Shown: positions 6,859-8,412, counted from the first letter of the stretch. The stretch is 64,000 bases of DNA from Candidatus Staskawiczbacteria bacterium (GCA_903885445.1 CAISIO010000020.1:55-64054), one strand, 5' to 3'. Notes: a model not told the origin generated them from the letters alone. Made by a program: numbers and translations.

Positions 6859-6940
6859 AACGTTCGCCAAACGAATTTTTTCTGCGGGGAGAGCCTCTCT
6901 AGCGGGGCACCCTCTCCTCGAAAAAATTATTTGGCTCGCT
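6859..6940. repeat. Palindromic ~82-bp repeat, copy A (immediately after the atpG stop)
   Basis: AACGTTCGCCAAACGAATTTTTTCTGCGGGGAGAGCCTCTCTAGCGGGGCACCCTCTCCTCGAAAAAATTATTTGGCTCGCT. It differs from copy B at about six positions. The arms GCCAAA..AATTTTTT and AAAAAATTATTTGGC, plus GGAGAG/CTCTCC, form a long hairpin. Confidence 0.75.
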
Positions 6941-6962
6941 TAGAAAATAATAAATAAAAAAT

Positions 6963-8333
6963 ATGAATACAGGTAAAATAATTCAGATAATTGGGCCGGT
7001 GGTCGACGTGGAATTTTTGGAAGGAACAAACTTGCCGGATATTTATAACGCTTTGAGGATTAAAGGGCCGAAAGGGGATGTGATTTTAGAAGTTGTAAAA
7101 CATTTAGACGCCACAAAAATTAAGGCAATTTCCATGCATTCAACTGACGGTTTGCAAAGAGGAGCCGAAGTTGAAGACTTGGGAAAACAAATTGAAGTTC
7201 CTGTTGGACAGGAAGTTTTAGGAACTTTGTTTAATGTTATCGGACAGCCTTTAAATAAAACAGACAAAGTTTTTAAAAAACATTGGCCAATTCACAGAAA
7301 TCCGCCATCGTTTACAGACCAATCAACCAAAACAGAAGTTTTTGAAACCGGAATTAAAGTTGTTGACTTGATTGCGCCATTTATTAAAGGAGGAAAAATT
7401 GGACTTTTCGGGGGAGCGGGAGTTGGAAAAACAGTTTTCTTGCAGGAACTTATCAGAAACGTTGCCGAGGAATCGGGCGGAGCTTCAGTCTTTGCCGGAG
7501 TTGGAGAAAGAACCAGGGAAGGAAATGATTTGTACAAAGATATGACAGATTCGGGAGTTATAAATAAAACAGCTTTGGTTTTTGGGCAAATGAATGAAGT
7601 TCCTGGAGCCAGGGCAAGAGTTGCTTTGTCTGCTTTGACAATGGCTGAATATTTTAGAGACGAAGAAAAGAAAAACGTTTTGCTTTTTATAGATAACATA
7701 TTTAGATTCTCGCAAGCTGGTTCTGAAGTTTCCACCTTACTTGGGCGTATGCCTTCGGCAGTGGGTTATCAGCCGACTTTGGCGCAGGAGATGGCAGAAT
7801 TGCAGGAAAGGATTACTTCCACAAAGAATGGGTCAATTACATCCGTGCAGGCAATTTACGTTCCTGCCGATGATATCACAGATCCTGCTCCGGCAACAAC
7901 ATTCTCGCACTTAGACTCTACTATTGTATTGTCCCGCGCGCTTACTGAGATAGGTATATATCCGGCAGTGGACCCATTGGCTTCAACTTCAACTGCTTTG
8001 GATCCGAAAATTGTGGGCGAAAAACATTACCAGGTTGCCAGAGACGTGCAGGGAGCTTTGCAAAAATATAAAGATTTGCAGGATATTATTGCCATTTTGG
8101 GAATTGAGGAATTGTCCGATGAAGATAAAAAAATTGTTGCCAGAGCAAGAAAAATCCAGAAGTTTTTGTCACAGCCGTTTTTCGTGGCTGAAAACTTTAC
8201 CGGCCGGCCGGGTAAATTTTGCAAACTTGAAGACACTATAAAAGGATTTGCCGAAATATTGGAAGGCAAGCACGACGACGTGCCTGAAGATAATTTTTAT
8301 TTAAGGGGAGGAATTGACGAGATTACAGCATAA
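6963..8333 (+). CDS. atpD: F0F1 ATP synthase subunit beta
   Basis: Walker A GGAGVGKT is present, with DNIFRF and [10 protein letters not shown] beta signatures. Confidence 0.97.
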
Positions 8334-8412
8334 CGCTCGCCAAATTAATTTTTTTTGCGGGGAGAGCCTCTCTAACGGGGCACCCTCTCCTCGAAAAATT
8401 ATTTGGCTCGCT
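8332..8412. repeat. Palindromic ~81-bp repeat, copy B (immediately after the atpD stop)
   Basis: AACGCTCGCCAAATTAATTTTTTTTGCGGGGAGAGCCTCTCTAACGGGGCACCCTCTCCTCGAAAAATTATTTGGCTCGCT. It starts inside or next to the TAA stop exactly as copy A does. Confidence 0.75.

Follow-up and report, generated by a model that had tools for sequence, protein, structure and literature searches.

In a 64,000-nt stretch of DNA from Candidatus Staskawiczbacteria bacterium (GCA_903885445.1 CAISIO010000020.1:55-64054; hereafter the window), the stop codons of two neighbouring genes of the F-type ATP synthase operon, atpG and atpD, are each followed by nearly the same palindromic element. Do these two hairpins, copies A and B, take part in the expression of the operon, or have they only settled in it? 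A sequence-only reading had offered both answers, naming REP/MITE-like mRNA stabilisers or processing sites that could set subunit stoichiometry and, alternatively, small mobile palindromes found next to stop codons. In our study, A and B were found to belong to a multi-copy, lineage-specific family, of which a third copy (C) lies inside mnmA in the same window. They are probably recent copies of a dispersed repeat that forms hairpins, is non-autonomous and is confined to Candidatus Staskawiczbacteria-like Patescibacteria. We infer that mobility is the cause of the pattern, that A and B arose by local copying and that the copies are nearly neutral. The AtpD and MnmA homologues place the host in Candidatus Staskawiczbacteria (Patescibacteria/Candidate Phyla Radiation, CPR).

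Two hairpins behind the stop codons of atpG and atpD

The features of the operon that are needed here are the following.

2051-3088 and onwards: F-type ATP synthase operon, atpB and atpE (2051-3088), then atpF, atpH, atpA, atpG, atpD and atpC (Pfam)
5898-6857, + strand: atpG, F1 gamma subunit (PF00231, E = 4.9e-83), whose stop precedes copy A
6861-6940, + strand: copy A, 80-nt hairpin element in the atpG-atpD spacer (sequence, fold, end pattern, profile)
6963-8333, + strand: atpD, F1 beta subunit (Pfam), with copy A on one side and copy B on the other
8334-8412, + strand: copy B, 79-nt hairpin element in the atpD-atpC spacer (sequence, fold, end pattern, profile)
8425-8667, + strand: atpC, short epsilon subunit with the beta-sandwich domain only (Pfam), 3' of copy B
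9240-9273, no single strand: bidirectional terminator-like hairpin at the end of the atp transcription unit (promoter/terminator scan)

The near identity of the two elements, which the sequence-only reading had pointed out, was confirmed: over about 82 nt there are 5 substitutions and 1 indel between A and B (identity 0.92), and the 37-nt core common to both has no other site in the window at up to 3 mismatches (0.00 expected from shuffles). Folding also bore out the long imperfect hairpin with its proposed arms, each copy forming one such structure on the + strand at -32.7 kcal/mol (z = -3.8 and -5.1) with outer arms GCCAAA..AATTTTTT / AAAAAATT.TTTGGC and inner arms GGAGAG/CUCUCC. Both elements had been described as beginning at the TAA stop, which is right as far as adjacency is concerned, the body of copy B starting at 8334 and abutting the atpD stop (8331-8333). 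In the case of copy A the description needs correction, as the atpG stop is the TAA at 6855-6857, a second, tandem TAA follows at 6858-6860 and the body of the element starts behind it at 6861 (CGTTCGCC). Nor does copy A fill the whole atpG-atpD spacer as had been supposed, since a 22-nt A/T-rich leader remains between it and the atpD ATG (6963); between copy B and the atpC ATG (8425) there are 12 A/T-rich nt. The hairpins fold on their own, and the next start codon is unpaired in both.

The terminator at 9240-9273 places A and B inside the operon and shows that they are not its terminators. They were rejected as intrinsic terminators also on their own features, as neither copy coincides with a promoter-like or terminator-like site in the promoter/terminator scan and no U-run follows either hairpin (the downstream sequences are UCGCUUAG.. 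and UCGCUACC..). Read-through of the stop codon into the element was likewise discarded, in-frame stops being reached after 13 codons in A (behind its double stop) and after 4 codons in B; AtpD homologues carry no element-derived C-terminal extensions. Rfam 15 gave no match at A, B or C in a search of the whole window at the gathering score, none within 6700-8600 at E<=10, and none at the five copies of the relative's locus L101 at E<=1.

A dispersed family with constant ends and exchangeable tips

The occurrence of the element was followed with a strict end pattern, built from the positions common to A, B, C and the copy behind atpD in the metagenome relative L014, and with a profile that was searched in 462 kb of genome stretches from relatives (given here as L with a number). 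The end pattern has 3 matches in the window against 0 expected. Across 185,579 species genomes (596 Gb) it has 61 matches in 57 stretches from about 20 metagenome-assembled genomes (MAGs), nearly all labelled Candidatus Staskawiczbacteria or Patescibacteria, and it has no match in viral contigs. The profile recovered 77 full copies in addition to minimal forms of 46 nt, with up to 5 copies within one 8-kb locus. One match of the end pattern, a copy upstream of rplU, lies in a contig filed under a Solirubrobacteraceae MAG (CAVRQK010000009.1, L082, 449,695 bp), and this is probably a mis-binned CPR contig (G+C 33-49%).

The sequence-only reading had allowed that the element might be unique to these two sites. 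It is not, as the window holds a third copy and the A/B subtype is present in other genomes: the tip sequence of A and B is identical in other MAGs (L088, L092), and it also stands in frame in mnmA of other organisms (L142, L143), with compensated stems. Since A and B are separated by 1.47 kb and neither has a closer relative than the other, one might suspect a mere local duplication without a wider family, or else ordinary intrinsic terminators or attenuators. With a third copy 27 kb away and dozens more in other genomes, this explanation is refuted and is next to impossible. Integron attC sites, CRISPR and tandem arrays were also considered and rejected, the copies being solitary and situated within housekeeping operons. 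Their ends (GCCAAAC / TTTGGC and GGCAAC / GTTGCC), judged by eye, do not fit both of the RYYYAAC / GTTRRRY cores of attC; and, contrary to an attC array next to intI, there is no integrase in the window and the sites are within housekeeping operons and reading frames.

Conservation across copies defines constant ends, (T)CGCTCGGCAA...TTGCCTCGCT(T), and an A/T-rich lower stem (..AAACTTTTTT / AAAAAGTTT..) with a conserved mismatch or bulge on the sense strand. The G+C-rich tip is exchangeable and occurs in several subtypes, commonly with a UUCG-like loop. The elements are 46-104 nt long and contain neither an open reading frame (ORF) nor coding capacity for a transposase. Their terminal inverted repeats of about 20 nt are imperfect, GGCAA(C)AAACTTTTTT pairing with AAAAAGTTTATTGCC, and exist also in the compensated forms GCCAA/TTGGC and GACAA/TTGTC. 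At the outermost conserved positions the repeat is direct (CGCT...CGCT) and not inverted, and conservation fades just outside it. The basal pair is GC in 67 copies, CG in 8 and AU in 1, and double changes were found at six tip pairs in type I and at two in type II; the hairpin is kept by compensatory changes. In the minimal 46-nt forms, the two conserved arms are joined by 2-3 nt without the G+C-rich tip. Two of these are listed below.

L102, 3172-3220: minimal 46-nt form, just upstream of an ATG
L132, 6934-6980: minimal 46-nt form, just upstream of an ATG

Position and orientation of the copies

All 61 intergenic copies with a callable upstream gene are in sense orientation to that gene; a first scoring had given 60 of 61, the lone exception being an artefact of ORF picking. 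The stop codon lies a median of 5 nt upstream of the element and the next start codon a median of 11 nt downstream, the residual spacer having a median of 22 nt, and within the spacer the elements are shifted towards the stop and away from the next start (mean fraction 0.35, p = 1.6e-4). The distance from the stop is not fixed, and the spacers that were entered are 3-25 nt long. Hence, the placement of an element 'exactly at the stop codon' comes about largely because the spacers are tiny and any insertion lands near a stop. Of the proposed targeting of stop codons, the closeness (median 5 nt) holds; the absence of a fixed distance and the shortness of the spacers speak against targeting as such. 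Genes downstream of copies include trmD, rny, rplU, frr, rpsP and rplK, and the three operon-end copies that were checked (L084, L092, L109) all lie between the stop codon and an intrinsic terminator.

L109 has two copies, 7.6 kb from each other, that point in opposite directions while the GC skew stays positive across the locus, which argues, as one case only, against a simple replication-strand bias; one of these copies follows a co-oriented gene and the other has only about 20 nt of upstream sequence, ending in TAA. The stability of the RNA was rejected as the cause of the sense orientation, since the antisense RNA folds slightly better than the sense RNA in 59 of the 77 copies (mean 1.9 kcal/mol, p = 4e-6). 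A copy in L101 (6805-6889) stands about 75 nt upstream of an RNase P RNA gene (6965-7398) in the same orientation; this gene scores 88 bits against bacterial class A, for which the gathering score is 100.

Filled and empty sites, nesting and twin copies

The comparison of orthologous atp operons, proposed as a check in the sequence-only reading, showed that the copies are missing in many relatives. In L139, the closest relative available (95% AtpD identity), both atp junctions are empty, the atpG-atpD junction having the same TAATAA and a 23-nt spacer, and both are empty too in L009 (92% AtpD identity), L002, L005, L006 and L023. L118 has a copy at atpG-atpD and none at atpD-atpC. Copies are present at both junctions in L089 and L112 and at atpD-atpC in L014, and each of these last three genomes has a different subtype. 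Two more junctions near mnmA are empty in the window (spacers of 4-5 nt) and filled elsewhere. Pairs of filled and empty sites (copy A of the window against L139, L112 against L118, and the two near mnmA) place the insertion right after the stop codon.

Moreover, nested copies were found in L089, L096, L097, L103, L105, L119, L126, L130 and L135, with the left arm of an older copy just 5' and its right arm just 3' of the younger one, as results from insertion into the tips of older hairpins. Such nesting explains the constant ends with changing middles as well as the turnover of subtypes at fixed sites. The copies flanking atpD are near twins in three genomes (identity 0.92 in the window, 0.99 in L089 and 0.99 in L112), the subtypes differing between genomes, and for 9 of the 77 copies the best match lies within the same 8-kb locus. 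From the twin pairs and the same-locus matches, local copying within a family of wide distribution is the best reading of A and B. The multi-copy family, the filled and empty sites and the nesting together support the earlier suggestion of small mobile palindromes next to stop codons.

Copies inside genes

Copy C and its host gene have the following positions.

34622-35731, + strand: mnmA, tRNA 2-thiouridine synthase, host of copy C, with all three Pfam domains intact
35019-35099, + strand: copy C, diverged family member, in frame inside mnmA (repeat scan, end pattern)

Copy C has the family ends, a compensated outer stem (GGCAAC/GTTGCC as against GCCAAA/TTTGGC) and a different tip. It is translated as TSLGNEIFSRLNPSADGAHSPRKNLLPR, a loop of about 28 residues which stands where the closest empty homologue has an IQDGK turn, and comparison with solved MnmA structures puts the insert in a variable hairpin turn. 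Among 121 MnmA homologues, 53 have a short loop (GHYAR-IKNG-KLLKG) and 68 have 4-46 extra residues exactly there; many of these inserts start with TSLGN or TSLAN and finish with LLPR, which are the translated ends of the element. An insert is missing from the two nearest homologues (81% identity), and one at 75% has the insert of the window. A second host gene is present in L137, where an antisense copy (3021-3120, - strand) is in frame (GNKLFAVPGPLVPQDKGGYQQTEKSFLP) in an ORF for a MiaB-family enzyme (2579-4030, + strand). This insert forms part of the linker between the UPF0004 and radical-SAM domains, and it is the only clear antisense copy seen. A peptide search for further host proteins gave no candidates.

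Comparison with known small repeats

Proteobacteria and Rickettsia are well known to have small palindromic repeats; for the CPR, our literature search found no description of one. In behaviour, the family is closest to the Rickettsia palindromic elements (RPEs) and the REPINs, and it is a member of neither. RPEs are short palindromic repeats that occur between genes and also in frame in unrelated housekeeping genes, where they give a tolerated peptide loop (PMC10969869). The family shares with them a small, reduced genome, the combination of intergenic and in-frame copies, and the absence of an encoded transposase or known mechanism of spread. The likeness was also tested at the protein level, where the in-frame palindrome does not destroy the gene, as MnmA keeps its three domains and the MiaB-family insert lies in a linker. 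On the other hand, the present family is found in Patescibacteria and has an unrelated sequence and a length of 46-104 nt as against about 100-150 bp; its copies are mostly intercistronic, sense-only and just behind stop codons, nesting and tip exchange are prominent, and only two host genes with in-frame copies were seen. The end-pattern scan of the 185,579 species genomes returned Patescibacteria-type MAGs only and no Rickettsia.

REPINs are long hairpins whose ends are conserved and whose middles vary (PMC3116915, PMC3337134). The family resembles them in its imperfect hairpins of about 70-100 nt, in within-genome populations of close copies, in its place in transcribed extragenic space and in the lack of a target duplication. 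It differs from REPs and REPINs in that its arms are not self-palindromic, a REP unit being an imperfect palindrome of 20-40 nt; CGCT stands on both flanks, whereas REPs have GTAG or CGTC at one end; and copies here are also found inside coding sequence (mnmA and the MiaB-family gene) and have a fixed orientation to the gene. No RAYT/Y1_Tnp match was found among the ORFs of the window. ERIC and Correia elements are likewise co-transcribed hairpins of about 100 nt, often at 3' gene ends or within operons, and in some known cases their orientation or RNase processing affects the mRNA level (PMC10969869). They differ in their TA target duplication, in occurring in both orientations and in having IHF or promoter motifs (Correia), whereas here there is no target duplication, no antisense intergenic copy and no promoter-like site at A or B.

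The MIRUs of mycobacteria are tandem direct repeats whose small ORFs overlap the stop and start codons on either side. They resemble the family as short repeats in the intercistronic spacers of operons that abut a stop and the next start, but here the hairpins are single and A and B show no ORF arrangement overlapping stop and start. PATE and Nezha elements, derived from IS200/IS605, have two subterminal hairpins and insert 3' of a target tetranucleotide that is present in the empty site. The shared traits are strand specificity, dependence on a hairpin, no target duplication and a short conserved motif at the hairpin foot; the family differs in having one hairpin and in empty sites without CGC.

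Possible manner of movement and possible effect on atp expression

If A and B are copies of a mobile dispersed repeat, as we think probable, new copies would enter very short operon spacers just 3' of a stop codon and always in sense orientation, with older copies as further targets and, on rare occasions, protein loops that tolerate an in-frame insert; at a given site, copies would be gained, lost and replaced over time. In the window, one copy would have come to lie behind atpG and one behind atpD, one of them serving as the source of the other, through a short-range hop to the neighbouring spacer or through gene conversion. Both would then be co-transcribed with the atp genes as passengers in the mRNA, each hairpin forming a self-contained rod that could bring together the upstream stop and the downstream start and leave the A/U-rich leader free; an effect on atp expression would on this account probably be small. 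Several results weigh against this explanation. The loci were picked by their match to the pattern, which biases copy density and site enrichment upward. No transposase, integrase or reverse transcriptase was found among the 66 ORFs of the window (Pfam), the 462 kb of loci yielded no long element with the same ends and only chance-like long-range end pairing, and no variable target-site duplication (2-5 nt, at every boundary) exceeds the expectation across copies. An all-versus-all BLAST of the loci likewise returned orthologous regions and no copies of an insertion sequence (IS). The re-use of sites by different subtypes would also fit old occupancy with internal turnover or gene conversion. 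Further, a neutral selfish passenger alone does not explain why all 61 scored copies are in sense orientation, and it leaves the siting of the L084, L092 and L109 copies before terminators unexplained.

How a dispersed repeat of this kind would move can be narrowed by its structure. One tentative possibility, which we regard as doubtful, is that an HUH/Y1-type enzyme, of the kind known from IS200/IS605 or REP-RAYT, acts on the hairpin and its CGCT foot on one strand and moves the element in single-stranded form, pasting it into exposed single-stranded DNA; were this target the non-template strand during transcription, a sense orientation would result. REP and IS608 ends share the architecture of a hairpin with a foot tetranucleotide. 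Such movement would fit the lack of target-site duplication, the CGCT on both hairpin flanks of one strand with conservation decaying just beyond, the conserved mismatch or bulge of the lower stem on the sense strand, the strict orientation that tracks the gene and not the replication strand (L109), and the insertion into the tips of older hairpins. Against it, the window ORFs include no Y1 transposase (the other loci were not searched for one), the arms are not self-palindromic REP units, the empty sites have no CGC target, one antisense in-frame copy exists and insertion at a transcription bubble is speculation. The flank motif, the stem mismatch and the missing duplication thus resemble HUH-type (REP/IS200-like) substrates, and none of the defining features was found. 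It is unlikely, in our estimate, that the element is a transcription-linked mobile hairpin, strand-specific and pasted into the exposed non-template strand or spread by way of the transcript just behind the stop codon, or else a movable cistron spacer kept by the host to preserve the proximity of stop and start in operons with spacers of 3-25 nt; pasting into the non-template strand or spread by way of the transcript would explain why intergenic copies are sense-only and upstream of the terminator. A classical MITE (miniature inverted-repeat transposable element), that is, a deletion derivative of an IS with a DDE transposase, mobilised in trans by a cut-and-paste reaction at its terminal inverted repeats, is very improbable. 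Length, copy number, the lack of a transposase ORF and the imperfect terminal inverted repeats are those of a MITE, but no plausible boundary shows a variable target-site duplication, the outermost conserved bases are direct and not inverted, and strict orientation is not expected from symmetric cut-and-paste; moreover, no parental or autonomous IS with these ends was found in the 462 kb of loci or among the 66 ORFs of the window.

The remaining alternative gives the hairpins a function: A and B would be an RNA module under selection, acting in cis within the polycistronic atp mRNA, that sets the output of gamma, beta and epsilon subunits as a block to 3'-5' exonucleases, as a processing site for RNase III/Y or through coupling of termination and reinitiation. 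Precedents exist, as RNase III cleaves Correia elements and mRNA decay is altered by ERIC elements situated at the 3' ends of genes (PMC10969869). The intergenic copies are all in sense and the three operon-end copies stand before the terminator, so that the element is always transcribed; the compensatory changes preserve the hairpin, UUCG-type loops are frequent at the tips, and the elements lie closer to the stop than to the next start. We nevertheless consider such a module improbable. The relative with 95% AtpD identity and most others have no copies at the atp junctions, and the sense element persists inside the mnmA frame in many lineages, its tolerance within a coding sequence arguing against an efficient cleavage site. 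The better folding of the antisense RNA means that selection for the most stable sense hairpin is not seen. Moreover, the start codons are unpaired, and a hairpin with 1:1 coupling would fit the 1:3:1 stoichiometry poorly. A role in ATP synthase subunit stoichiometry therefore appears unlikely from the sequence comparisons, and the atp hairpins are probably passengers and not regulators.

Other repeats and neighbouring genes

Other palindromes were seen in similar places. A sister repeat family with the ends CTCGGCAGTAA...TTACTGCCTCGCT is present in L097 (2752-2852, - strand) and provides the hosts of nested copies in L105 and L126. Unrelated hairpin repeats occur at like junctions downstream of atpD in L012, at about 2865-2890 in L089 and in the atpD-atpC spacer of L140 and L141; their types are gtcattgcgagg...cctcgcaatgac, ggattcccgctttcgcgggaatgac, and a GGAATGTAAAAAT/ATTTTTACATTCC hairpin after CGCTCGG. 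Several families of palindromes seem to gather in the operon spacers of CPR bacteria.

Within the atp operon, the atpA-atpG spacer (5571-5897, 327 nt) holds a small gene on the opposite strand, an ORF at 5624-5848 of about 63 aa from its ATG, with a GGAG ribosome-binding site and, by the atpA stop, a hairpin-plus-T-run terminator of its own; it has no Pfam match, and this spacer contains unrelated small antisense ORFs in L139 and L140. AtpC (8425-8667) has 80 aa and consists of the beta-sandwich domain without the C-terminal helices, and an ORF of 180 aa without a family match (8689-9231) lies between atpC and the terminator at 9240-9273. Elsewhere in the window, 27759-30806 encodes a 1015-aa FG-GAP repeat protein with DNA repeats at 29085-30236, and 56097-59084 a 995-aa protein with a Big_4 domain and 78-nt tandem DNA repeats at 56751-57760.

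Significance for CPR genomes

The family combines traits that are usually separate, namely coding palindromes like those of the RPEs, populations like those of the REPINs, nesting with tip exchange, and sense-only placement behind stop codons. It accounts for many of the odd peptide loops and differences in length among CPR proteins, an insert being present in over half of the MnmA homologues examined, and also for spurious N-terminal extensions in gene calls, and its filled and empty sites can be used as strain-level markers. If the orientation rule reflects the mechanism of insertion, it would point to an unknown strand-specific or transcription-linked movement of DNA in very small genomes. 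Should the element in fact be a transcription-linked hairpin or a host-kept spacer, its choice of target and orientation would be undescribed for small repeats of bacteria, and CPR operons would offer a natural system for the study of hairpin tolerance, both between coupled cistrons and within proteins.

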